Source: a virus
Direction: 5' to 3' (one strand)
Length of the DNA: 40,595 nucleotides
IMG/VR virus record: IMGVR_UViG_3300031162_000774
Location: 1-40,595 of that record
Within the stretch, counting starts at the first letter, position 1; every line of letters starts with the position of its first letter. The position numbers were made by a program, and so were the translations under genes. Below, piece by piece: positions 2,491-27,069 of the stretch. Below the pieces are notes generated by a model, which was not told the origin of the DNA, ran no database searches, and worked only from the letters and a program-made list of their open reading frames with translations.

Positions 2491-3846
2491 TTAGTTCTCA
2501 AGATCCTGGAATGTGTCAGTTTCATCTACAGGATCTTCTTCAAATCCACTATTAAATAAATCATCAGATCCATTTATGTCTTCTTCAATATTACCGTATA
2601 CTTGATCAGATGATAATTGTTTTTGTACAGTTTCAACAGATACAATACCTCTATCCACATATACAGCATCACGATCAGCGTTAGTACGCGAAATATTAGC
2701 TTCTTGCTCTTGAGACATTTGCCATAAAGGACAATATTCAAAAGCAACTTCCCTTGGTTTACCAAATGCTGAAGCATGAATTACATTCAATAATGTTTGA
2801 ATTGGATCAGTCATTTCATTTTCTTGACGACCTGAAATATCATCATAATAGTTAGTAAGTGAACTTTGTCCAGTATCACCTAAACCAGCTTCTTGTTTAC
2901 CTAATAATTTTGATGGTGGAACTCTTGAAGCTCCTGATACTTTTAATAAGAATTTATCATCAAGTTCAGCAAGACCTGAAAATGTATTTGATTTTTTTTC
3001 ATACGTATCTTTTGAGTCTAATGCAATACCGTTAATGTAGCTCTTAAGTTGATGTGCAATAGCTAAACGTTTTACTGCAGCAGCTTCACCTTCAGGTCCT
3101 AGAGCAATCATCTCATTTAAACCTTCAATACCATAAACATCTATATTAGCTTCTTTAGTCATAGTAGCAATTTCTAAAGATAATCCTTGACTATTACTAA
3201 CTGGCTGCCAAGTTTTTTCAAATGATGAATATCCCCAATAACCATTTCTTTCAAATTCTTCTATTGATGTAATTTCACCATCAAAACGAAGTACTCTAGA
3301 ATGATGTATTTGTTGTCCATTTCTTGATACAAGGTAATGTTCAGGTAAACCAAAATTTGATGATAGAAGGTTAGTATCTATTGGTCCTACCGTTACTCTC
3401 CAGCGATCTAATACAATAAGGTTCTTAATACCTTTATTTCTGATAGCAGATAGTGTAAGTTCTTCAGACATATCACGACCATCATTAATCATCATAATAA
3501 TAATTGAACCACCATAAGCTGAAGCCCATTTCAATGCTTGATTGATTTTCTTTTTAGCACCTAAACGACTTAATTCTTTCTCAAGAACTTCTTCTTTAGC
3601 TTCGTCCTCATCTAAAATCTCAATCCAATTACGCGTCATATCATCGACTGGAACATTAACAACGGCTGCAGCTAACCAATTTTGTGAATATAATGAAGAT
3701 ATAAATTCTAAATTCTGGCTAAGTAATGTACCCCTTTTAAAATTCATATATGTTTGAGCATCTTTAGAAGTACCCATTCCAGTTATTAGATTTTCAAATC
3801 CATCAACTGCTACGTGTAAATTCTTTTTATTCTTTTTCTTAGCCAT
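2491..3846 (-). CDS. Portal protein
   Basis: 451 aa with an acidic C-terminus, directly upstream of the MuF-like gene (the usual portal-MuF pairing) and downstream of TerL. Resembles the DUF1073-type portal family from memory. Confidence 0.8.
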   Translation of the reverse strand: MAKKKNKKNLHVAVDGFENLITGMGTSKDAQTYMNFKRGTLLSQNLEFISSLYSQNWLAAAVVNVPVDDMTRNWIEILDEDEAKEEVLEKELSRLGAKKKINQALKWASAYGGSIIIMMINDGRDMSEELTLSAIRNKGIKNLIVLDRWRVTVGPIDTNLLSSNFGLPEHYLVSRNGQQIHHSRVLRFDGEITSIEEFERNGYWGYSSFEKTWQPVSNSQGLSLEIATMTKEANIDVYGIEGLNEMIALGPEGEAAAVKRLAIAHQLKSYINGIALDSKDTYEKKSNTFSGLAELDDKFLLKVSGASRVPPSKLLGKQEAGLGDTGQSSLTNYYDDISGRQENEMTDPIQTLLNVIHASAFGKPREVAFEYCPLWQMSQEQEANISRTNADRDAVYVDRGIVSVETVQKQLSSDQVYGNIEEDINGSDDLFNSGFEEDPVDETDTFQDLEN

Positions 3847-3855
3847 TGTAAATCC

Positions 3856-4497
3856 TTAATGTGTATTCTGGAATTTTCTGCTCATTGACTTGTCCATGAA
3901 CCAGAACCCAACAACAGTACTTGTTGTAAATGTCAATAATCTCAACATTGTTTGAATTATATCATATAATTGATCCGCTGTAATTGCTATACCTAGTTCT
4001 TGATACATTCCAAATGCTATATATGTAACATAAGCTGAAAATACAACTGATCCATAAGTAACTAATACTCTTACAAGAGTTCTTGAAATATCAACAATCC
4101 CATGAATTAATGTAATTATAATTGCGATAGGAATAGTCATCCACGCAGTCCATTTATTTTCATTGAACATCATCTTATCGACCATTGAAGATTTAACATA
4201 ATTTTCTGAAAGTTTTAATATAGATTTATTTCTACCTTTACTCTCTTCAATATCAGCTTTACCTTCCATAATGATCTGATCACGTCTAACATTAGCTTCA
4301 ACTTCTTTTATTGTTGCTTCTGTTTCAGCAGTTATCATCGCCAAATTATTAGCATGATCAAGCTTTTTATTCTCAATCTTAAAAGCATTTGCTCTTTCAT
4401 CAGCTTTCATTTTTATCCAGGCTGTACCTAAACCACCTAATATACCAAATAAACCACCACTTAGACCATTGCCTAAAAAACTTAATATAGTATCCAT
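3856..4497 (-). CDS. Holin-like membrane protein (Gly-rich N-terminus, long helix, three C-terminal TM segments; GTA-type 3TM holin-like)
   Basis: 213 aa. Has an N-terminal GNGLSGGLFGILGGLGT, a central charged helix and three hydrophobic segments (WMTIPIAIIITLIHGIV, VTYGSVVFSAYVTYIAFGMY, LLTFTTSTVVGFWF). It is adjacent to a putative cell-wall enzyme. Confidence 0.5.
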   Translation of the reverse strand: MDTILSFLGNGLSGGLFGILGGLGTAWIKMKADERANAFKIENKKLDHANNLAMITAETEATIKEVEANVRRDQIIMEGKADIEESKGRNKSILKLSENYVKSSMVDKMMFNENKWTAWMTIPIAIIITLIHGIVDISRTLVRVLVTYGSVVFSAYVTYIAFGMYQELGIAITADQLYDIIQTMLRLLTFTTSTVVGFWFMDKSMSRKFQNTH

Positions 4498-4499
4498 AA

Positions 4500-4931
4500 C
4501 TATAACTCCTTTATGATTAATTTAAAATCTTCTTTATCCATAAATTCCATAAATTGTCTAACAGCTGTACGACTTGTTAAAACAGCTTTCTGATATTTAC
4601 CAAACTTATTCTTGATCTTACCTCTACCTTTACCTAATGCTATACAACCATTAAGATGGCTTTGCCATCCCTTCTCTGTATCTCCTGCAAAGTTTGCTCC
4701 ATGCATTAGAATATAAGTTCGATCCTCAACATCTGTAACATGAAAGGTAATACCAAATCTAGGAGATTTTCTAATCTTGCATATATACTCTTCGGCTGGA
4801 ATACAGCTTATACTTCTTTGGTTATTTCTATCAGGTAATTCTAAAGTATGCCAATAATCGCCGTTATGAACTATATATCCAAATGTACCTTCATCAGCTG
4901 AAGGCTCTCTGTATAAGTATACTGTTTTCAT
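4500..4931 (-). CDS. Putative peptidoglycan-acting enzyme (DUF5675 / L,D-transpeptidase-fold-like), candidate endolysin
   Basis: 143 aa. The pattern GTFGY...TLELP...NNQRSISCIPAEEY...ILMHGANFAGDT...LNGCIALG matches the DUF5675 phage family as I recall it (His/Cys pair as in the YkuD fold). It is flanked by membrane proteins. Confidence 0.45.
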   Translation of the reverse strand: MKTVYLYREPSADEGTFGYIVHNGDYWHTLELPDRNNQRSISCIPAEEYICKIRKSPRFGITFHVTDVEDRTYILMHGANFAGDTEKGWQSHLNGCIALGKGRGKIKNKFGKYQKAVLTSRTAVRQFMEFMDKEDFKLIIKEL

Positions 4932-4993
4932 TATCTATCTTGTTTGTGGTAATATTGGTCTTGGAGCTGGTCTTGGTTTAGGTGCTACCATTA

Positions 4994-5512: not shown

Positions 5513-6037
5513 TTAACTTAATATAATTCCATGACAAGACACTTTAAAATAATCCATAAGCAGCAAATCATCTCTAACAATAATTTTTAAATCTTTATTT
5601 TTAATAACTGGAGCATTGTCATTATATGTTTCTGTAAAATCCCATGTTCCGTATATTGCGGTTTTTTTTGTAGATGCAAATGCAACTGTTTCAAGTTCAA
5701 CATTTGAAGATATAAGAATTGCGTCACCATTTGATTTAATCTCAGCTCGTGCAGTTATTATAGGAGTATCTCCATTAGCACTAAATAAAACTCCATTTGT
5801 TAGAGTTGCTATACTTCCAAATTGTTCTAAATCAACAATTGCATCTGCTCCAATTAAGAATGTTACACGCTGTAATAAGAAGTCAGTATTTGGTAAATCC
5901 TCTAGAGTAAATTCAACAGGTGTAACTGAACCATTAACAGTTAAATCATCACTTCCGGTTTTTTTAAACTTAGTGTAAAATGTATCACTTGTTTGAATTA
6001 AGTTAATATCTTGTTTTGAACCACCATACTTAGCCAT
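5513..6037 (-). CDS. Hypothetical protein (beta-rich), between TerL and the lysis cluster
   Basis: 174-aa ORF with AAGGA-type SD spacing. No motif recognised. Confidence 0.5.
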   Translation of the reverse strand: MAKYGGSKQDINLIQTSDTFYTKFKKTGSDDLTVNGSVTPVEFTLEDLPNTDFLLQRVTFLIGADAIVDLEQFGSIATLTNGVLFSANGDTPIITARAEIKSNGDAILISSNVELETVAFASTKKTAIYGTWDFTETYNDNAPVIKNKDLKIIVRDDLLLMDYFKVSCHGIILS

Positions 6038-6083
6038 AGTAAATCCTTATTGTTATTTTATAATGGACAATTATATCATGTTT

Positions 6084-7454
6084 TTAAGCAAGCATAGCAT
6101 CTACGCCTGAAGATCTTAGATTATAATATGACATAACAAAAGCATCTGCAACATTTGGTGATTTAACTTTACGTTTCTTAAGATCATCTTTTGACTCAAC
6201 TTTAATCTTACCAGACTTAGCAAAATCACGTTTAGGTGTAGATAACTCACTTATTAATTGATTAAGTAGTTTAATATCAGAGCTTATAGAGATAATATCA
6301 CTCTCTTTGAAATCGTCACCTTTTGTAACAGCATTATAAGTTTTCTTACAACGTTCAGCAATATCCCACCAGGCTTGTGCTTTTAGATTTTCGAAATAAT
6401 CTCTATTCTTGATCCCTGTATCTTTATAGTTTCTATCGGGATTTTCAACGACTGCACCTGCATTAAACTTCTTATAAATAAGGTTATGTACTGATCCACC
6501 TGTCTTAATATTGAAGTCTTTAAAGTTACTACCAGCAGAAGCACCAACACCTATTGAGTCATAGACAATTCTTGATCTATCTTTAGAAGCATAATCAAAA
6601 ACTCTTTTAGCACTTCTATTAAGTTCATCTTCAGCAGCTTTCCATTCTTCTATGTATTCACATAATTGACCATGGCGTTTCACTAGTGCATTTTTATCTT
6701 CACCGTCATCTGCAACATCAAATCCAACTACCTTTTGCCCAGAAGGTACAATATTTAATTTCTTATGAGCATCTACGCAAGCTTCTAACCAACTACGTTT
6801 AATGATTGACTCTTCATTATCTTGTCTTGGAATACCTAAGTAAATATGTTCATATTCTTCATAATCTTTTTCTTTCATACGTTTGATCTTTCTAAGCATT
6901 GTTTCAGACAAGAAAGGATTTTTATCATAATTGATTTGAACCACTATTACACCATTATCTGGATCATGATGAAATGTTTCAATAAAATCTTCTTTCATTC
7001 TTGGATTATAACTGATCCAACACTCAGCACCTTCTTTACGTATAGTAGGCTCTATAATTTGCCATTGTTCTTCTGTAAGACCTTCACCTTCTTCAATCCA
7101 ACATACATCAGCACCTTCAAAACCTTTGATCTCTGTAGTATTTTTATTCATACCATAGAAGAAGAATTCTGTACCTGTTACCTTATGTCGTATTGTTGAT
7201 TTAAGGAATTGAAATTGATCTTCTATACCTGCGGCTTCAATCTTTAACTTAAGTACAGCATAAACAGACTCTTGAATTTTATTCTGAAATTGTCTAATAC
7301 ATAAGAACTTTACTTTGAATTTTTGAGCCAGGTATATAGACCATCCAGCAATATCATGGGTCTTAGAAGAAGCACGACCACCTTTGATGATCTTTAAATC
7401 AGCTTTAGTAGTCCATACATATTTAAGATTTGGATTAAGTTTTAATTTGCTCAT
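6084..7454 (-). CDS. Terminase large subunit (PBSX / Terminase_3-like)
   Basis: 456 aa. Walker A-like KGGRASSKTH, Walker B VCWIEEGE, and a C-terminal RNase-H-like nuclease block VGFDVADDGEDKNAL. Confidence 0.93.
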   Translation of the reverse strand: MSKLKLNPNLKYVWTTKADLKIIKGGRASSKTHDIAGWSIYLAQKFKVKFLCIRQFQNKIQESVYAVLKLKIEAAGIEDQFQFLKSTIRHKVTGTEFFFYGMNKNTTEIKGFEGADVCWIEEGEGLTEEQWQIIEPTIRKEGAECWISYNPRMKEDFIETFHHDPDNGVIVVQINYDKNPFLSETMLRKIKRMKEKDYEEYEHIYLGIPRQDNEESIIKRSWLEACVDAHKKLNIVPSGQKVVGFDVADDGEDKNALVKRHGQLCEYIEEWKAAEDELNRSAKRVFDYASKDRSRIVYDSIGVGASAGSNFKDFNIKTGGSVHNLIYKKFNAGAVVENPDRNYKDTGIKNRDYFENLKAQAWWDIAERCKKTYNAVTKGDDFKESDIISISSDIKLLNQLISELSTPKRDFAKSGKIKVESKDDLKKRKVKSPNVADAFVMSYYNLRSSGVDAMLA

Positions 7455-10842: not shown

Positions 10843-13431
10843 TTATAGGGAGCCTAAATCGTCTTTCTTTATTAAAATCCCTGTTTTATCTTTAAAAGCC
10901 TTAATAAATCGACCTTTCTTGAATAATTTCATACGTCCATCATGGCGTCTCACTAACTTAGGATCGGCCATTTCATTAACTCTTCTACTAAATGAAGCTA
11001 CGTTGCCTGCATACTTATCTTTAGAATGTATACTATAAGCTTCAAACATAGCATGAGGATGAACCTCTGTATCAAAGAATTTATTGCCCCAGCTATCACC
11101 TAACATCTTATTACTCATTGAACAGTTATATAACCATTCTTCAAGTTTATTCAGACCTTGCTCTTTCTGCTCAACCAATGCAGTTGTCTCAGGTGCTTTA
11201 TACATCTTATGAGTAATTTCACGCTCCATTAAGAAATGAAGTAATGCTTCACGTCCACCATTATTTAGCCATATTCTGAACTTATCCATATATTCTAGGT
11301 TACCACGATACTTGTCACTCATCTCTAATACTATATAACGCCTTTCATCATCACCTTTTGCTGGCACTACCCAATCAAGGTTTGTAGACATAAAGACTCT
11401 AGAAAAGTTATCTCCTGAGAATGCGTCAATACCTTTTTGTTCATAATGCATTTCGTTTTCAGTGATCAGAGTTTTCAATGCACCTTCAGCAGCATGATTA
11501 CCACTAAAAAAAGCCTCTCCTATATTACATACAACCGAATTCTGAAGATGTATATTAAATCTTCCAGTAATTGAGTCCATGTTATTTACAGTAATATAAT
11601 GACTTCTATCAAATAATGAAGCGAACGCCCCTATCCAAGTATCTTTACCTACACCTTTCTTACCTTTAAGAACACAGGCCATACCTTCTTTCTTTTCAGG
11701 AAACTGTACAATATGAGCAAGATAGTCAAGCATAAACTCAAGCATATCTATATTATCCAGTGATTTACTATCAGCTCCACCTACTACTATATCTCTTGTA
11801 AACTCAATGAATGGTTGAACATCTCCTTCAATAGACTCACAAGCAAAACCTTTCCATAAGTTATAGTAGCCATTGTCCATAATATCTTTAGGATCTTTGC
11901 TTGGATCGAAACGAACTCCACGTATCTTCTTACGATAACCACCTTCTATCCAATCAGTAATAAAATCACTGTCTTTAGTATTGAATTCTTTATAGGTCTC
12001 TCTTAGCTTCATAGGTGTTTGTAAATGTATTGTTCCGTCTTCATCTATTTCTACGTATAATGGATGCTTACCTTCTGTTACGTAGAATGTGTTATCACTT
12101 AGCTGCTTCCATGCACGCTCTTGTTCACTATCTACTTTTTCTTCGTCATTGAAGCCATCATCAGTAACATTTATATCTTTTACTGTACTGTAATCAGACT
12201 CCTTTAAGTACTTTTTTATTGCTCCCTTTGTCTTGTCCATAGTATCAACAAGGATATTGATTGCTTTATCTAACATATAACCTTTGAAGTCACGCTTGAT
12301 AATAGTGAATACGTCTTCTTCGTCCATGTTTTCTACAATGAAAGGAATTGACTTAAGATCACAATGGAAATAGTACATTTGTCCACCATGAACAAAAGAG
12401 TGCATTGCTGGCCTCTTAGTAAGATCAAGACTTTCAAATACTTTTGCCTTATTCATACCTTTCTCAGGTTCAAAAGGATCACGCATAGAAACGTCTACAT
12501 AATTTCCTACTAATATCTCACGAGCTTTAATAGTAGTTCCATCATTTAATATAAGCTTTTCGTTACCATAGATCTGATTAGTACGTTCGATATTTCTTCT
12601 TTTTATATCTTTATGATCTTTACTGGTTGATTTATATGTTTTCTTAAGATTATGTATCATATCATTGACTTTACTCTGATATGTTGTATTGATATTTGTC
12701 TTACGAACTAATCCACCATTTATAACACCGCCTGGATAATAGAGATCATCTCTGACTACACGCTTAAGCTTCTTATGTAATATCGGCAATGCTTCATAAA
12801 TAATACGACTAGGGTCACCTTTGAGTAAAGCAAGATCGACGATACCATTAATATATCCTCTGAAAACTTTCTCATTTACTTTAATCTCACCGAAACCTTC
12901 GTTAAGTCCGTTGTTGAATAATGCTTCAGAATAACTTTTGATGTACATTTCTTTATTTATTCTACAATAAGCATGAACACTTCCATAACCTGTTTCATCT
13001 TTGCCGTTTGTTATACCTGCTGATGATCCATATGTTAAGAACATCTCAGTATTCTCTAATTGAGGATCACATTTAATAAGCATATTTCTGTATTCTTCTA
13101 AAGTTATATCTGTATAATCACGAAGATCGAAGTCAAACATAATAATACCTGACTTATTTTCAAACATGTCTTTAGTTCTTGTAATACCATCTGACTTTAG
13201 ATTACTTCTACTATATATCTTACCTTCGCCACTACCTTCAACAGGTGTTCCTAATATAATTGCTTGATTAGATTTTAACTTCTGTTTCACTATACCTATT
13301 TGTTCTAACGATGATAGTTTGATAACTTTATAATTACCTTCGTATAATTGACTAGATCCATCTTTAGTTAGGTCCTTATTATATGTTTTACACATTTTAC
13401 CTTTGTTATTTGAGACTACAGTGATTTGCAT
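10843..13431 (-). CDS. Bifunctional primase-helicase: N-terminal AEP (prim-pol)-like domain fused to a D5/P4-type SF3 helicase
   Basis: 862 aa. N-terminal IIMFDFDL (DxD) and GYGSVHAYC (sGxGxH) resemble AEP motifs I and II. The C-terminal part has Walker A VLKGKKGVGKD and a P4/D5-family-like region (VVCNIGEA..., DDERRYIVLE). Confidence 0.8.
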   Translation of the reverse strand: MQITVVSNNKGKMCKTYNKDLTKDGSSQLYEGNYKVIKLSSLEQIGIVKQKLKSNQAIILGTPVEGSGEGKIYSRSNLKSDGITRTKDMFENKSGIIMFDFDLRDYTDITLEEYRNMLIKCDPQLENTEMFLTYGSSAGITNGKDETGYGSVHAYCRINKEMYIKSYSEALFNNGLNEGFGEIKVNEKVFRGYINGIVDLALLKGDPSRIIYEALPILHKKLKRVVRDDLYYPGGVINGGLVRKTNINTTYQSKVNDMIHNLKKTYKSTSKDHKDIKRRNIERTNQIYGNEKLILNDGTTIKAREILVGNYVDVSMRDPFEPEKGMNKAKVFESLDLTKRPAMHSFVHGGQMYYFHCDLKSIPFIVENMDEEDVFTIIKRDFKGYMLDKAINILVDTMDKTKGAIKKYLKESDYSTVKDINVTDDGFNDEEKVDSEQERAWKQLSDNTFYVTEGKHPLYVEIDEDGTIHLQTPMKLRETYKEFNTKDSDFITDWIEGGYRKKIRGVRFDPSKDPKDIMDNGYYNLWKGFACESIEGDVQPFIEFTRDIVVGGADSKSLDNIDMLEFMLDYLAHIVQFPEKKEGMACVLKGKKGVGKDTWIGAFASLFDRSHYITVNNMDSITGRFNIHLQNSVVCNIGEAFFSGNHAAEGALKTLITENEMHYEQKGIDAFSGDNFSRVFMSTNLDWVVPAKGDDERRYIVLEMSDKYRGNLEYMDKFRIWLNNGGREALLHFLMEREITHKMYKAPETTALVEQKEQGLNKLEEWLYNCSMSNKMLGDSWGNKFFDTEVHPHAMFEAYSIHSKDKYAGNVASFSRRVNEMADPKLVRRHDGRMKLFKKGRFIKAFKDKTGILIKKDDLGSL

Positions 13432-13571
13432 AATGTCTAACCTTTAAAATTGATTAGTGCTTAATAGAGTTTCCATGGCTCTTTTGAAACACTTAATACG
13501 ACATCATTGGATAGGAGAGCCATGGGAAGTTTGCCTAACCCAGATGATGCCTTATTAAATGCTTGATTTGT

Positions 13572-13604
13572 ATTATAATTAAGTTTTGATTAAAGTTTTA
13601 TTAA
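13572..13604 (-). promoter_or_regulatory. Copy 3 of the 33-bp promoter-like motif
   Basis: The reverse complement reads TTAATAAAACTTTAATCAAAACTTAATTATAAT. It lies upstream of the long leader of the primase-helicase gene. Confidence 0.55.
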
Positions 13605-13673
13605 CTAGGCTATGTCAGACCTAGTTAATAAATAGAGGAAGTTAAACGAGTGCGTTATCGAGGCGCATAAGAA

Positions 13674-13934
13674 TTATATCATAAACTTCTTAGAAAATTC
13701 TTTATATTTATGATTTTTTAAATATTTAAGAATAACTTTTCGATCTTTTTCCTGATACGGATATGGAACTGAACCTATAATATTACATATAATATCTAAA
13801 TGTTTTCTATTATATTTTATACCTGATTGTTCTACCCACCGTATAACGTTGCCTAATACGCTATAATCCTTACTATCTAACCTTTTGAATTTATTACTAA
13901 GCTTCTTTTGAAGCTGCTTGTATGCTTTTTTCAT
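13674..13934 (-). CDS. Hypothetical protein, 86 aa (basic)
   Basis: ORF-track entry, tightly packed in the early minus-strand operon. Confidence 0.45.
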   Translation of the reverse strand: MKKAYKQLQKKLSNKFKRLDSKDYSVLGNVIRWVEQSGIKYNRKHLDIICNIIGSVPYPYQEKDRKVILKYLKNHKYKEFSKKFMI

Positions 13935-13936
13935 AA

Positions 13937-14185
13937 TTAAAATACCAAACTTAAATCATCGTTATTATTTATAATTTCCTGAAGTTGTTCTTTTAATAAT
14001 TCATCTTTTAATAAAGGAGATTTTATCATTCTTTTGACATCTTCTAATTTTATATTTGGACAATCCCAATCTTCATTGTAATAATAGTATTCAATATTCA
14101 AACTTTCCATGATTGAATTAAATTCTTCTCTATTTGATTTGAATAACTTTCCACCACCTGCATTTGTATTTATACTTGTTCCCAT
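13937..14185 (-). CDS. Hypothetical protein, 82 aa
   Basis: ORF-track entry, 3 nt after the upstream gene. Confidence 0.45.
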   Translation of the reverse strand: MGTSINTNAGGGKLFKSNREEFNSIMESLNIEYYYYNEDWDCPNIKLEDVKRMIKSPLLKDELLKEQLQEIINNNDDLSLVF

Positions 14186-14188
14186 TAT

Positions 14189-14665
14189 TTATCCTTTTGC
14201 AACATTTTCTAACTTAGATATTAATTCATTTTTCCATTCCCATGTACTAAATTGAGGTAAATCTATATCACCTGTAGTTTTAACACCATTACGCTCAAAT
14301 CCCAATCTACCTTTCATAAATACAATCTTACCTTTACAAGCAAAATCATGGAACCATTGTGTATCTGTTCTAGATGGTATTAAACAAACACCAATTTTAT
14401 TATGCTTTTTTGATTGATTATAAGCATATTCCAACCATTCAGGTATTGATCTACCATATGGAGGGTTCATCCAAAAATTCTTATCCCATTCTTGAATAAG
14501 GGCGTTATCTTCTTCAGTAAAATACTTTTTACATTTAGATGTTTCTGGATAACAACATACGTCTAATTTTAATTTAGTGTTAAATTTCTTTTTTACTAAA
14601 TCTACAAACCATTGAGGTGTCGCCCAATCTTGATGAATTGAACTCATTACGTTTTTAACGTCCAT
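14189..14665 (-). CDS. Phage Dam-family DNA N6-adenine methyltransferase
   Basis: 158 aa. DWATPQWF ... FWMNPPYGRSIPEWL ... CLIPSRTDTQWF is the signature of the small phage N6-adenine MTase family (NPPY catalytic motif). Confidence 0.8.
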   Translation of the reverse strand: MDVKNVMSSIHQDWATPQWFVDLVKKKFNTKLKLDVCCYPETSKCKKYFTEEDNALIQEWDKNFWMNPPYGRSIPEWLEYAYNQSKKHNKIGVCLIPSRTDTQWFHDFACKGKIVFMKGRLGFERNGVKTTGDIDLPQFSTWEWKNELISKLENVAKG

Positions 14666-16698: not shown

Positions 16699-17244
16699 AT
16701 GAGCAAAGGGCGCCAAATGGCAAAATCAGGATTTAGAACAGTAAAATCAATGGGTAATATTATTAAGTCACGTATGGATTTAATGAAATCATGGGATAAG
16801 AAAGATGCTTTAGCATTAATGTTACCTCAACGTGTTGAAGACAATATACTATATAACTTCAAAAATGATGTTATCGGTGGTTGTGATGGTGAAGATGTTA
16901 TCTTCCATAAAGATGGATCTATTATAGATGAAACAAACCGTATTACAGATAAGTTCTTAAATACATTTTATGCTCCAATGGAAGCTTACTTTAATAGTGC
17001 TTTAGTTGAAGAAGATAAAACTACTTCTGAAGACGAGACTGAAGATACTGCTGATGATGAAGAAGTTACTGAAAAGAAATCTAAAGATGTAATTGCTGAA
17101 GGTCATCCAGAACTTGATGAAATTGCTGCTTACCTTGTAGATGGTAAAATCAAAAAAGCTAAAAAAGTTCTTAAAGGTATGGATGAAGATCATGCTGACT
17201 ATAAAGAAGCTAAAAAACTTATCAAAAAAGCGAAGGGAGAATAG
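16699..17244 (+). CDS. Hypothetical protein with an acidic central tract and Lys-rich C-terminus
   Basis: 181-aa ORF. An alternative start at 16717 (MAKSG) has a better AAGGG SD. Contains the acidic run EEDKTTSEDETEDTADDEEVTE. Confidence 0.5.
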   Translation: MSKGRQMAKSGFRTVKSMGNIIKSRMDLMKSWDKKDALALMLPQRVEDNILYNFKNDVIGGCDGEDVIFHKDGSIIDETNRITDKFLNTFYAPMEAYFNSALVEEDKTTSEDETEDTADDEEVTEKKSKDVIAEGHPELDEIAAYLVDGKIKKAKKVLKGMDEDHADYKEAKKLIKKAKGE

Positions 17245-23955: not shown

Positions 23956-24441
23956 ATGGAAGTTAAAGATATATTAGAACAAAGGCAAGAAACGCATGGT
24001 GATTTTGGACAAGGTGCAAAATTTACACAAGAATATAAAAGAGAGATGAGAAGTATTTCTACTTACTGTCAATTAACTTATTCTCAAAAAGAAGCAGCAG
24101 ATATGATTATTCATAAACTTGCTAGAGTTATGGTCGGTGATTTTAAATGGTTAGATAGCTGGTATGATATTATTGGATATTCTCAATTAGTTGTTAATAT
24201 AATGAAAGAAGATATATTACCTGAACCTTTCTTTGCTTTAAATCCTGCTATTATTTATGAAACTATTAATGGTGTATTAATTGAACGTTATCAATTAGCT
24301 ATATCTACACAGATTGTTTCAATGGTATCAATAGCAATTGCTAATCCAGCATCAGTTAAACCATGGAAAGATATTATTAAACTTGCTCAATATATTATTG
24401 ATGATCTTGAAAGTAAAGGAGAAAAGCGTGTACAACGTTAG
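23956..24441 (+). CDS. All-alpha NTP pyrophosphohydrolase-like protein (MazG/MazZ N-terminal-domain-like)
   Basis: 161 aa. RQETHGDFGQGAKF...AADMIIHKLARVMVGD resembles the R...(Y/H)G(D)....K..R pattern of the phage dNTP diphosphohydrolase N-terminal domain (DUF6378-like), from memory only. Confidence 0.4.
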   Translation: MEVKDILEQRQETHGDFGQGAKFTQEYKREMRSISTYCQLTYSQKEAADMIIHKLARVMVGDFKWLDSWYDIIGYSQLVVNIMKEDILPEPFFALNPAIIYETINGVLIERYQLAISTQIVSMVSIAIANPASVKPWKDIIKLAQYIIDDLESKGEKRVQR

Positions 24442-25078
24442 TGATATTCGCCACCTCCTTGGTGGAAAATTATTCGATGAAGAATTTGTTGAAGATAAAT
24501 CAGGTGTTAAACTTATAGAAATTATAGGTGAGTCTTTTATTTGTGATGAACCTACTATATTTGGTACAAGAAATGAAGAATATATTGCTAAAGAAATTAA
24601 GTGGTATGAGTCTCAATCATTAAATATTTATGATATGAAATGTCCTCCTAAAATTTGGTGTGATATTGCTGACAGTAATGGTTATATAAATTCAAACTAT
24701 GGTTGGATGATATTCTCAACTACTAATGGTAATCAATATAATCGTGTTCTAAATGAACTTCGTGAAAATCCAACATCAAGACGTGCTGAAATGATCTATA
24801 CAAGACCATCTATGCATACAGATTATCGTTTAGATGGTATGAGTGACTTCTGCTGCACATTAGGAGTTGATTATTTTATACGTAAAAATAAACTTCATGC
24901 AATTGTAAAGATGAGATCTAATGATGCTATTTTTGGTTTTAAAAATGATTATGCTTGGCAAAGACATATATTGTTACGTTTAGCAAATGAGCTAATGGTC
25001 GCATGTGGTGATATTATTTGGCAAGCTTCTAGCTTACATGTATATGAAAGACATTTTCATTTGGTTAAAGGAGAATAA
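24428..25078 (+). CDS. Deoxycytidylate (dCMP) 5-hydroxymethylase, T4 gp42-like
   Basis: Blocks VKLIEIIGESF, INSNYGW, NPTSRRAEMIYTRPSM, DGMSDFCCT, KMRSNDAIFGFKNDYAWQ and SSLHVYERHF are colinear with T4 gp42 as I recall it. Residues at the positions of Cys148 and Asp179 appear conserved. GTG start at 24428 with AAGGAG 6 nt upstream; the ORF-track ATG at 24338 would overlap the upstream gene by 104 nt. Confidence 0.85.
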   Translation: MYNVSDIRHLLGGKLFDEEFVEDKSGVKLIEIIGESFICDEPTIFGTRNEEYIAKEIKWYESQSLNIYDMKCPPKIWCDIADSNGYINSNYGWMIFSTTNGNQYNRVLNELRENPTSRRAEMIYTRPSMHTDYRLDGMSDFCCTLGVDYFIRKNKLHAIVKMRSNDAIFGFKNDYAWQRHILLRLANELMVACGDIIWQASSLHVYERHFHLVKGE

Positions 25079-25079
25079 A

Positions 25080-25550
25080 ATGAGTAAACAATTAAAATTT
25101 GATGCCGCTATGATGATCACTGCAGCTGCATTTGGTAAATTAAGTCACGCTAAGCGTGGCAAAGTTGGATGTGTCATAGCTAAGGATAACAGAATTATAG
25201 CTAATGGCTACAATGGAACATTACCTGGATTATCTAATGAATGTGAAGAAGAATGCCCAGATTGTCACGGTTTGGGTCTTGGCTGTAACACTTGTCAGAA
25301 TAAAGGTTATGTAACTTCTGAATTCGTTTTACATGCTGAACAAAATGCAATCTCTTATTGTGCAAGAAATGGAATACCTCTTGAAGGTACTACGTTATAT
25401 TTAACATTAAGTCCTTGTAAGACATGTGCAAAACTTATTGCTTCATGTGGTATTGAAAGAGTTGTATATGAAGATATATATCGTGACGACGGTGGTATTG
25501 AATACCTAGAAAAATGTAAAATTAAAGTGGAGAAACATAATGAAAAATAA
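25080..25550 (+). CDS. dCMP deaminase (CMP/dCMP-type zinc deaminase)
   Basis: HAEQNAI and SPCKTCAKLI catalytic zinc motifs plus GYNGTLPG. A Cys-rich insert CEEECPDCHGLGLGCNTCQNKG lies at the position of the structural second zinc site. The ATG at 25080 lies 1 nt after the upstream stop. Confidence 0.88.
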   Translation: MSKQLKFDAAMMITAAAFGKLSHAKRGKVGCVIAKDNRIIANGYNGTLPGLSNECEEECPDCHGLGLGCNTCQNKGYVTSEFVLHAEQNAISYCARNGIPLEGTTLYLTLSPCKTCAKLIASCGIERVVYEDIYRDDGGIEYLEKCKIKVEKHNEK

Positions 25551-26433
25551 AGATACAGTTTACGTGCTAAATAAAAAGCAACAACAAAAGAAAACTAAGG
25601 TTACAAAGATAGACGGTGATCAAGTATGGGTTAAATGTTCTGATAAACCATATCCAATGTCTGAAGTTATGACTGAGAAAAAAGTTGATCTAAAAGCTAA
25701 ACCTTATAACAATACTCAGTTAGATCCTGATAAAGCATTTGAACGTCATATCTTTCATCGCGATCAATTCGCTCATTACTTCAGATGGACACATGTTCTT
25801 AAGTTAGCTAAAATCGGTGGTAAAGTTTTAGACTTTGGTTCAGGTAGTGGTAATCTTGTTGAGGTCTTATATCGCAACCAGTTCAAACAATCACAATATC
25901 TAGGTCTTGAATACAAGCAAGGTACTGTTGATAAAGCAAATGAAAAATACGCTAAAGTTCCTTGGATTGATTTTAAACAAGCTGATCTTGTTAATGATGT
26001 AGATCATGGAAATGACTGGGATATTATCTGTAGTTTTGAAGTAATTGAACATGTAGGTGTTGACAATGGTAAAAAGTATCTTAAAAATCTTAGAGCTCAT
26101 TGTAACGATAATACAACGGTTCTTATATCAACTCCTGTTTATGATCATAATACTGCTGCAGCTGGTAACCATGTTGTTGACGGTGAAGTAAATGAGTATA
26201 CGTATGAAGAGATGGAGAAACTTATTACCAAATCAGGTTTTGAAATTGAACAAACTTATGGTACTTTTGCTTCAATGAAAGATTATAAATCTGAAATGAA
26301 TGAACATCAGAAGTATGTATTTGATGAGTTAAATAAATACTATGATAGTAATGTTACATCAATCTTGATGGCACCAATGTTTCCTAAGCAGTCACGTAAT
26401 GTCATTTGGAAATTAAAAAAGGCAGGTAAATAA
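25540..26433 (+). CDS. Class I SAM-dependent methyltransferase (small-molecule/UbiG-like type, not a recognisable DNA MTase), substrate unknown
   Basis: 297 aa. Motif I VLDFGSGSGNL, post-I YLGLE and IICSFEVIEHV typical of Methyltransf_11/23-like enzymes. No (D/N)PPY or PCQ DNA-MTase motif. An N-terminal extension of ~90 residues is present. Confidence 0.7.
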   Translation: MKNKDTVYVLNKKQQQKKTKVTKIDGDQVWVKCSDKPYPMSEVMTEKKVDLKAKPYNNTQLDPDKAFERHIFHRDQFAHYFRWTHVLKLAKIGGKVLDFGSGSGNLVEVLYRNQFKQSQYLGLEYKQGTVDKANEKYAKVPWIDFKQADLVNDVDHGNDWDIICSFEVIEHVGVDNGKKYLKNLRAHCNDNTTVLISTPVYDHNTAAAGNHVVDGEVNEYTYEEMEKLITKSGFEIEQTYGTFASMKDYKSEMNEHQKYVFDELNKYYDSNVTSILMAPMFPKQSRNVIWKLKKAGK

Positions 26434-26435
26434 AG

Positions 26436-26609
26436 ATGTCAAGCACAGTTACAATAACTACAAAAGATAATGATACTAAACTTGAGAATGTAAAATTCTA
26501 TGCATTTGAAAGAAACTTTGTTAATGTCGTTTTAGAAAATGGTAATAAATCATATTTTAAAACATCTACGATATTAAAATTGGAAGAGGTTAAAGATGAA
26601 AAAAACTAA
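26436..26609 (+). CDS. Small hypothetical protein, 57 aa; not in the ORF track
   Basis: My own translation: MSSTVTITTKDNDTKLENVKFYAFERNFVNVVLENGNKSYFKTSTILKLEEVKDEKN. Starts 2 nt after the MTase stop and overlaps the next gene by 14 nt. Confidence 0.4.
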   Translation: MSSTVTITTKDNDTKLENVKFYAFERNFVNVVLENGNKSYFKTSTILKLEEVKDEKN

Positions 26610-27069
26610 CAAACCAGAAAACCAATGTGCACATTTAGAAGTACCTGAAGAGAATTTCTCTTTTCAGGATATGCTAGATCTTCAACACAATTTACAAATA
26701 GACTTGGCTCAGAGATTACCTCTAAGCAATATTGATCCAACTATGATAGAAACCAAAGGAGAGTTAAAAGAATGGTTTAGAGATAACAGAGATGCTATTT
26801 CTGATGAGTTTACAGAACTTATTGAAGCTATTGGTGGTAATGACTCAGCTATTTGGAAAAAGTGGAAAGCAAATCATGCTGCTTTAGGTCAAGAAAAATG
26901 GCAAGATCTATCTGAAGATGAGATGCTTGAACTTAAATATGAAGCAATCGATATTATGCACTTTATCAATAATATTTTTATTGCTCTTAGAATGGATGCT
27001 GCTGAAATTGGTAGAATGTATGCTGCAAAGAATGCAGAAAATTTACGTAGATATAAAACACAGTATTAG
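26596..27069 (+). CDS. Dimeric dUTPase / MazG-like all-alpha dNTP pyrophosphatase (candidate dCTPase/dUTPase)
   Basis: 157 aa. SDEFTELIEAIGG...WKKWK...ELKYEAIDIMHFINNIF matches the E..E...(W)K.W...E..D..HF pattern of dimeric dUTPase / dCTP pyrophosphatase families. Confidence 0.6.
   Translation: MKKTNKPENQCAHLEVPEENFSFQDMLDLQHNLQIDLAQRLPLSNIDPTMIETKGELKEWFRDNRDAISDEFTELIEAIGGNDSAIWKKWKANHAALGQEKWQDLSEDEMLELKYEAIDIMHFINNIFIALRMDAAEIGRMYAAKNAENLRRYKTQY

Follow-up and report, generated by a model that had tools for sequence, protein, structure and literature searches.

Here, we provide comparative genomic and structure-prediction evidence on a gene for an S-adenosylmethionine (SAM)-dependent class I methyltransferase (MTase) in IMG/VR record IMGVR_UViG_3300031162_000774, a whole tailed-phage contig of 40,595 bp (hereafter the window), and argue that the enzyme is likely to be a dedicated part of a pathway for C5-modified cytosine. 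The window encodes a terminase, portal, protease, major head protein, DNA polymerase A, primase and Dda-like helicase, and reading of the translations suggests that baseplate/tail-like open reading frames (ORFs) are present as well. The MTase gene stands in a tightly packed run of genes on the plus strand, which comprises the following features:

25540–26433, plus strand: SAM-dependent class I MTase, the gene under study (ORF with ATG start and TAA stop, 297 amino acids (aa))
25540–25704, plus strand: N-terminal domain of the MTase, residues 1–55, a predicted basic small β-barrel of SH3/KOW/Tudor type (AlphaFold2 model; isoelectric point (pI) 9.7)
24401–25078, plus strand: dCMP hydroxymethylase, ThyA-like, homologue of T4 gp42 (PDB 1B49/1B5E, E 2.6e-73; phrog_160, 1.2e-50)
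25080–25550, plus strand: dCMP deaminase (Pfam dCMP_cyt_deam_1, 8.7e-22; phrog_174, 1.9e-51)
26596–27069, plus strand: MazG/dimeric-dUTPase-like NTP pyrophosphohydrolase, candidate dCTPase/dUTPase (phrog_173, 1.2e-17; phrog_18650, 1.5e-11)
26436–26609, plus strand: ORF of 57 aa downstream of the MTase gene and ahead of the NTP pyrophosphatase gene (ORF call only)
23956–24441, plus strand: DUF6378-containing protein directly upstream of the hydroxymethylase (Pfam DUF6378, 3e-4; phrog_17775, 6e-21)

The MTase gene is genuine, because its product matches Pfam Methyltransf_23 (E 1.8e-16) and has 713 homologous clusters at 90% identity in a metagenome protein collection. Methyltransf_23 was the top model, and five generic Pfam MTase models scored above their cut-offs. 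All three motifs that the first-pass annotation had read in the translation were found, namely VLDFGSGSGNL at residues 96–106 (LDFGSGSG at 97–104), GLE at 122–124 (LGLE at 121–124) and FEVIEHV at 166–172. Motif I, the acidic residue at the end of β2 (GLE) and the alternating β/α elements of the AlphaFold2 model (predicted local distance difference test (pLDDT) 90.6) assign the protein to class I, as do the structural neighbours: Foldseek retrieved 1237 structures from PDB at E ≤ 0.001, and all those named as MTases among the top 50 listed belonged to this class. In agreement with the earlier reading, the translation contains neither (D/N)PPY nor PCQ; the catalytic motifs (D/N/S)PP(Y/F/W) and PCQ/ENV of DNA MTases are likewise absent from it, and no Pfam DNA-MTase model matched. 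The start of the gene, with GGAG 7 nt upstream of the ATG, overlaps the end of the dCMP deaminase gene at 25550 by 11 nt (ATGAAAAATAA), exactly as had been noted before. This overlap and the close spacing of the genes suggest that they form an operon.

The pyrimidine-modification context proposed for the gene is real. The ThyA-like protein, for which the ATG at 24401 is the probable start within an ORF opening at 24338 (TTG), aligns over its whole length to the solved T4 dCMP hydroxymethylase (E 2.6e-73) and possesses the equivalents of Cys148 (MSDFCCT) and Asp179 (FKNDYAWQ). According to the passage of PMC8670742 that cites Graves et al. 1992 and Hardy & Nalivaika 1992, the Cys serves catalysis and the Asp, in place of the Asn of thymidylate synthases, confers specificity for cytosine. 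Judged by this gp42-type match and the presence of both residues, the phage very probably makes 5-hydroxymethyl-dCMP (hm-dCMP).

The MTase is tied to this type of enzyme well beyond the window. When all ORFs lying up to 5 kb from the MTase were clustered for 91 loci, which represent 14 MTase lineages (75% identity), ThyA emerged as the only other family that occurs in all 14 lineages (90 of 91 loci). The next most frequent neighbours were dCMP deaminase (9 of 14 lineages), MazG/PRA-PH (6 of 14), trimeric dUTPase and a DUF6378-like small protein (5 of 14 each). Among the 88 loci collected first, 87 had a ThyA-like gene within ~4 kb of the MTase, and the contig of the exception ends 400 bp past the MTase; each of the 74 distinct ThyA-like proteins at these loci carries Asp at the specificity position (motif RSNDxxxGxxxD). 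The linkage does not reflect one conserved genome, because gene order and phage backbones vary widely among the carriers, which include a 28-kb integrase-bearing phage, a 172-kb contig and contigs of ~50 kb, some of the latter with apparent Human Microbiome Project sample ids. It was also found on six of the seven contigs of metagenome-assembled genomes (MAGs) that have flanks, and in Stenotrophomonas phage AXL3 and MW202510, whose MTases are 26–30% identical to that of the window and in which the MTase, an NTP pyrophosphatase, a kinase-like ORF, ThyA (PYD, Asp type) and the dCMP deaminase lie in a row. The description of the gene as an orphan is fair only in the sense that it has no partner restriction enzyme, but it belongs to a large conserved module and is not isolated.

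In the opposite direction the association is loose. Among 80 IMG/VR loci with the ThyA closest to that of the window (50–58% identity plus one 83% relative), only one, the window's own relative, encodes the MTase, and the pelagiphage HTVC200P (L183) has an Asp-type ThyA without it. As nearly every MTase locus has ThyA while few gp42-like loci have the MTase, this asymmetry fits an optional tailoring enzyme that acts downstream of the hydroxymethylase.

A gene fusion suggests the level at which the enzyme may act. On contig L184, a gene at 3542–4951 that is flanked on one side by a dUTPase gene and on the other by that of an Asp-type ThyA (FQYD) encodes a protein of 469 aa (P0138), which combines an additional N-terminal domain with the MTase. 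Its gene contains 21 in-frame TGA codons, and TGA is read as glycine on this contig, because many of these codons fall on conserved glycines of the MTase (motif I DFGCGKGN, GLD, GTFAS). We take this reading to be genetic code 25, which implies a phage host among the Gracilibacteria/Absconditabacteria. With TGA as glycine, the N-terminus of P0138 (MRIIIDGCDGTGKTTLANII) has a P-loop of the thymidylate-kinase type, and the domain shows weak similarity to SPbeta YorR and to thymidylate kinases (E 0.005–0.02). Such a fusion of a putative dNMP kinase with the MTase would argue that the latter acts on nucleotides, beside the phosphorylation step. Other long family members (P0178, P0158, P0226, P0269 and others) showed no recognisable Pfam domain in their extra regions. 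A UDG-like domain considered for the C-terminus of AXL3 gp29 and the N-terminus of P0248 was dropped, as it found no Pfam, PDB or BLAST support.

Most homologues of the MTase are ~245 aa long and 50–60% identical, and the metagenomes in which they were found include marine (Tara) and freshwater ones. When 1.84 billion cluster representatives were searched with a profile, 257 clusters at 50% identity were obtained (E ≤ 1e-30), and 427 relatives were found among the IMG/VR pattern matches. In GTDB, with 185,579 species representatives, there were no more than 12 hits; all of these lie on MAG contigs, mostly of phage size, and none in an isolate genome. Among GenBank phages, relatives (26–30% identity) occur in just five records, including the cultured AXL3 and Pseudoxanthomonas phage PW916. 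Based on this distribution, the family is essentially phage-restricted and uncharacterised; the sole true viral relative in BFVD, A0A6J5RQB1, is named just 'AdoMet_MTases domain containing protein'.

Placement among characterised MTases had been proposed as a check in the first-pass annotation. Foldseek searches of PDB and BFVD retrieved only generic class I enzymes at template modelling (TM) scores of ~0.5 (TleD, MitM, PfPMT, RebM, ToxA and capping enzymes) and gave no hint of the substrate. Sequence profiles, however, identified the MTase domains of bacterial Hen1 as the nearest solved proteins (E 4.7e-10), followed by phosphoethanolamine N-MTases and CFA synthases, and hhalign aligned the protein to the Hen1 core with a probability of 97.7–97.8%. 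The MTase belongs to none of the Hen1, UbiG and CFA synthase families, because it missed every curated NCBIfam cut-off: 28.1 versus 340 bits for bacterial Hen1 (TIGR04074), 43.1 versus 102.95 bits for UbiG, and 26.9 versus 400 and 26.6 versus 600 bits for the CFA synthase models.

These comparisons bear on whether the gene encodes an auxiliary metabolic enzyme that methylates an unrelated small molecule such as a quinone, a lipid or another metabolite. The protein folds like a small-molecule MTase, source annotations read 'UbiG-like' and 'CFA-synthase-like', and weak matches to UbiG, CFA synthase, BioC and others were obtained. UbiG was the top NCBIfam match (2.9e-11), and UbiG/Coq3 and the O-methyltransferases RebM, AtmM and StiD resemble the phage enzyme in fold (Foldseek TM ~0.5) and in an acidic/His motif after β4. 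Yet identities to this group are 11–20%, the scores remain far under the cut-offs, and the likeness to lipid and quinone MTases, clear homology to which had been named as grounds for abandoning a nucleotide-related role, is generic only. The family is moreover absent from isolate genomes and tied to Asp-type ThyA. Its invariant residues outside the motifs are polar or charged (H73, R74, D75, H79, R82, Y267, D269, R286, N287, W290) and outline no hydrophobic pocket, and the core has a nearly neutral pI of 6.2, compared to a median of 6.8 in the family. A near-neutral core with such residues would suit a nucleotide ligand better than a lipid, a quinone or long duplex DNA, and we consider methylation of an unrelated metabolite very unlikely.

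The resemblance to Hen1 appears to extend to its active site. HEN1 activates the ribose hydroxyl by means of a metal, with E796, E799 and H800 as ligands in a short helix between β4 and αD and H860 as the fourth ligand in a short helix after β5 (PMC10781085). The corresponding E167, E170 and H171 of the phage MTase, which align to the EVIEH of Hen1, lie at a short helix (169–172) after β4 in the model and are invariant in 55 sequences, including members only 26–35% identical. Also invariant in these sequences are N210, H211 and E219, with N210-H211 in a short helix (209–211) after β5, and S-T-P on β5 is invariant in the family as it is in Hen1. In distant members the loop is shortened to the motif A-A-N-H-x-x-E, in which the spacing equals that of Hen1 D-H-R-F-E. 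Hen1/HENMT1 and the phage enzyme share the class I SAM fold, E-V-I-E-H after β4, S-T-P on β5 and, with the fourth ligand only putatively equivalent, (D/N)-H-x-x-E in a short helix after β5. They differ in that the phage enzyme lacks the FXPP motif, RNA-binding domains and a Pnkp partner, has invariant N- and C-terminal segments of its own, and is accompanied in the genome by a dCMP hydroxymethylase and not by RNA-repair genes; neither Pnkp nor an RNA ligase was detected among the neighbours in the window or at the related loci.

The terminal segments deserve separate treatment. About 95 residues precede motif I, close to the ~90-residue N-terminal extension described earlier, but they are not one extension. 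Residues 56–92 are conserved across the whole family (YNxTQL...HRDQFAHYLRW) and are part of the enzyme core. The family has a further invariant segment of its own at the C-terminus (GTFAS...YYD...SRNxxW). Residues 1–55, in contrast, are lysine-rich, are modelled as three strands (pLDDT 85–96 in the full model, 75 when modelled alone) and were found in only 2 of the 14 lineages (3 and 6, those of the window and of L007) and in the homologue P0008. In Foldseek searches with the isolated domain every match had E > 0.09, so that no fold match was significant.

A basic domain of this SH3/KOW-like type could bind RNA, which would fit the alternative hypothesis that the protein is a true Hen1 analogue. 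Its target for 2'-O-methylation would then be the 3'-terminal ribose of an RNA, or else a free ribonucleotide, the reaction might serve to protect or repair RNA during infection, and the nucleotide genes would be mere operon neighbours. Bacterial Hen1 domains are its best sequence relatives in PDB, and the Hen1 metal ligands appear conserved. A near-obligate Asp-type ThyA partner in 14 divergent lineages with shuffled gene order would be hard to explain, however, and the fusion of one member to a dNMP-kinase-like domain would be equally unexpected. Given also the missing Pnkp/RNA-ligase partner and FXPP motif, the score far below the bacterial Hen1 cut-off and a core that is not basic, we regard an RNA substrate as improbable.

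Our preferred reading, which we hold tentatively and at somewhat less than even confidence, is a metal-assisted O-methylation of 5-hydroxymethyl-deoxycytidine (hm-dC) nucleotides to 5-methoxymethyl-dC. The MTase would be a Hen1-like, probably divalent-metal-dependent SAM O-methyltransferase that serves as the tailoring enzyme of a cytosine-replacement pathway. Briefly, the MazG-like pyrophosphatase would hydrolyse dCTP to dCMP, which the gp42-type enzyme would convert to hm-dCMP. The MTase would then move the methyl group of SAM onto the hydroxymethyl oxygen to form 5-methoxymethyl-dC, most likely on the mononucleotide and less likely on 5-hydroxymethylcytosine (hmC) in DNA. The modified nucleotide would be phosphorylated and incorporated by the phage polymerase, resulting in virion DNA with capped hmC that might escape restriction enzymes and possibly hmC-specific nucleases, and the dCMP deaminase would steer part of the dCMP to dTMP. 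The general proposal that the MTase acts in a cytosine/hmC pathway, made in the first-pass annotation, is thereby supported in part, by the linkage to Asp-type ThyA across all lineages, the restriction to phages, the kinase fusion and the Hen1-like signature.

The same pathway could involve another chemistry, with methylation of a nitrogen (e.g., N4) or another position of dC, 5-methyl-dC or hm-dC in nucleotides or DNA, and would then yield a doubly modified cytosine. The linkage to Asp-type ThyA reveals a dependence on C5-modified cytosine and not the atom that is methylated, the structural neighbours include the N-methyltransferases PfPMT, MitM and ToxA, and some partner ThyAs are distant from gp42 and could make 5-methyl-dCMP. 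Against this, the invariant E-x-x-E-H and N-H-x-x-E appear to match the metal site of Hen1, which is an O-methyltransferase, as is the top NCBIfam match UbiG, and the partner in the window is clearly a hydroxymethylase; methylation of a different atom therefore appears unlikely to us.

A further alternative leaves the chemistry of the DNA unchanged and casts the enzyme as a protein MTase, which modifies a replication or nucleotide enzyme such as the hydroxymethylase, or as a regulator of the module. Pairwise identities of the MTase and ThyA correlate across lineages (Spearman 0.57), and this co-inheritance could reflect a physical partnership; weak matches to the protein MTases PCMT and PrmC were also obtained. 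These matches are marginal, and the ThyA partners are diverse (median identity 32%) compared to the conserved MTase (median 54%), which speaks against a co-evolving protein target. A nucleotide substrate would agree better with the kinase fusion and with the putative hydroxyl-activating site of Hen1 type, and a protein target is in our view highly improbable.

Several observations weigh against O-methylation of hm-dC nucleotides. The top Foldseek neighbours are a mixture of O-, N- and C-methyltransferases, all at TM ~0.5. The fourth ligand of the putative metal site is ambiguous: hhalign placed the respective Hen1 histidine (H860 in plant HEN1, H181 in human HENMT1) six residues downstream of H211 at low confidence, and neither HMMER nor hhalign gave a confident alignment over this region. 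The metal of Hen1 binds the 2',3'-diol of ribose, which hm-dC does not have, and the geometry assumed for hm-dCMP is speculative. In several lineages the partner ThyA homologues are only 19–35% identical to gp42; such distant partners, AXL3 gp28 and the FCND type of lineage 0 among them, could be dCMP methylases instead of hydroxymethylases, leaving no hydroxyl group to methylate. Searches of the window by P-loop regular expressions, and by tblastn for which kinase-like ORFs from L001, L005, AXL3 and MW202510 served as queries, detected neither a dNMP kinase nor any other P-loop nucleotide kinase, so that the route from monophosphate to triphosphate is incomplete there; in other carriers (L005, AXL3, MW202510, L184) a kinase-like ORF lies inside the module. 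One 305-kb MAG contig (L099, MTase homologue at 5926–6876) is the only flanked homologue without ThyA within 6 kb, and may represent a jumbo phage or another use of the enzyme. Finally, the modelled SH3-like N-terminal domain in the lineage of the window hints at binding of nucleic acid.

The proposed pathway can be compared with two known systems. The hmC pathway of T4 (gp42, the dCTPase gp56, the kinase gp1 and α/β-glucosyltransferases) likewise combines a gp42-type enzyme with the Cys and Asp residues, dCMP deaminase, NTP pyrophosphatase and a linked tailoring enzyme. In the phage described here, however, a SAM-dependent MTase takes the place of the glucosyltransferase and a MazG-like protein that of the gp56-like pyrophosphatase; neither a dNMP kinase nor a glycosyltransferase was detected in the window, and the genome of 40.6 kb is not T4-like. 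The second system is the 5hmC carbamoyltransferase module of other phages, in which a cassette of ThyA-like protein, PRA-PH/MazG and dCMP deaminase carries an experimentally proven 5hmC carbamoyltransferase (PMC8670742), an enzyme that works on hm-dCTP and on DNA (PMC8670742, MetaGPA study). Both modules comprise a ThyA-like hydroxymethylase, PRA-PH/MazG, dCMP deaminase and a single further enzyme, which caps the hydroxymethyl oxygen in the carbamoyltransferase module and would do so here in the form of the MTase. The two enzymes belong to different superfamilies and use different donors (carbamoyl phosphate/ATP versus SAM), and their products would be a carbamate and, as predicted, an ether (methoxymethyl). 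Function was shown by experiment for the carbamoyltransferase and is predicted for the MTase.

We found no report in the literature of natural methoxymethyl-cytosine or of the function of this MTase family, no paper joining methoxymethyl, bacteriophage and hydroxymethylcytosine, and none joining dCMP hydroxymethylase with SAM-dependent methyltransferase. The only mention of O-methyltransferases places them, as uncharacterised genes, beside phage 5mYOX dioxygenases (PMC13229309). Restriction data on a cultured carrier of the module give an experimental hint in favour of the proposed pathway. AXL3 DNA withstood digestion by each of the 35 enzymes with G/C in the recognition site, and the only 2 that cut it, out of a panel of 37, recognise A/T-only sites; the authors concluded that it contains an unidentified G/C modification (PMC7504290). 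The paper on PW916 holds no restriction-digest data.

The gene downstream of the MTase had been described as dUTPase/dCTPase-like. A MazG/dUTPase_2-like gene is indeed present, but does not follow directly, as the 57-aa ORF intervenes. The MazG-like product scored 0.002 against Pfam dUTPase_2, below the cut-off, and a PDB sequence search with it gave no match. The 57-aa ORF had no Pfam, PHROG, NCBIfam or PADLOC match and appears to be either spurious or recently inserted, because it was not detected in the close relatives L009–L011, where the MazG-like gene begins ~25 nt or less from the MTase stop. DUF6378-type small helical proteins recur beside the MTase/hydroxymethylase module in lineages 0, 4, 5, 8 and 11, in L007 and in the window, and may be a further component of it. 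In relatives, the following DUF6378-type ORFs were located:

L007, 5103–5366: DUF6378-type ORF
L015, 4006–4338: DUF6378-type ORF
L033, 499–789: DUF6378-type ORF
L061, 7729–7995: DUF6378-type ORF

Elsewhere in the window, sequence matches identify a bona fide DNA MTase that is distinct from the gene under study:

14189–14665, minus strand: Dam-type DNA N6-adenine MTase (Pfam PF05869, 4e-27; phrog_111)

PADLOC reported only a generic MTase-domain match, to mad2. GC skew and AT skew change sign near positions 17000 and 27000, and these flips coincide with switches of the coding strand (minus at 1–16.4 kb, plus at 16.7–27.1 kb, minus at 27.1–40.2 kb).

Some further features of the carriers were observed. 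In the 28-kb contigs L001–L004 (~8262–8993 in L001) and in HTVC200P, an integrase adjoins the Asp-type ThyA gene, with or without the MTase; these possibly temperate carriers may switch to modified cytosine upon induction. The MTase homologue of L099 has as its neighbours an HNH endonuclease, an AAA_33/zeta-toxin-like kinase, an HD-domain protein and a thioredoxin-like protein. A ~51-kb lineage-0 carrier of the module (L034), probably a gut phage judged by related sample ids, encodes at 13381–14103 a response-regulator-like protein (Response_reg + Trans_reg_C), an unusual gene in a phage genome. When the putative gut-phage lineage was compared with GenBank phages by megablast, no match was obtained.

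Hypermodifications of phage DNA fuel the arms race with restriction and other defences and have provided reagents, such as hmC, glucosyl-hmC and enzymes for epigenetic sequencing. It is possible, although we advance this at somewhat less than even confidence, that widespread phages replace cytosine with 5-methoxymethylcytosine that is made by a Hen1-derived O-methyltransferase acting on hm-dCMP. Such phages would inhabit marine, freshwater, soil and probably human-associated samples, and one of them reads TGA as glycine. The cultured carriers AXL3 and PW916 make the question directly testable. If the modification is real, sequencing, digestion and detection of metagenomic phage DNA would be affected, as the family is common. 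If the proposal is true, the known hmC pathway would gain a new tailoring chemistry and a new, chemically minimal DNA base, whose SAM-dependent cap could evade both classical restriction and type IV enzymes directed at hmC or glucosyl-hmC, and would block the labelling of hmC by T4 β-glucosyltransferase. It would also mean that the scaffold of a small-RNA 2'-O-methyltransferase was recruited to the chemistry of DNA precursors, placing a Hen1-type core outside RNA biology.

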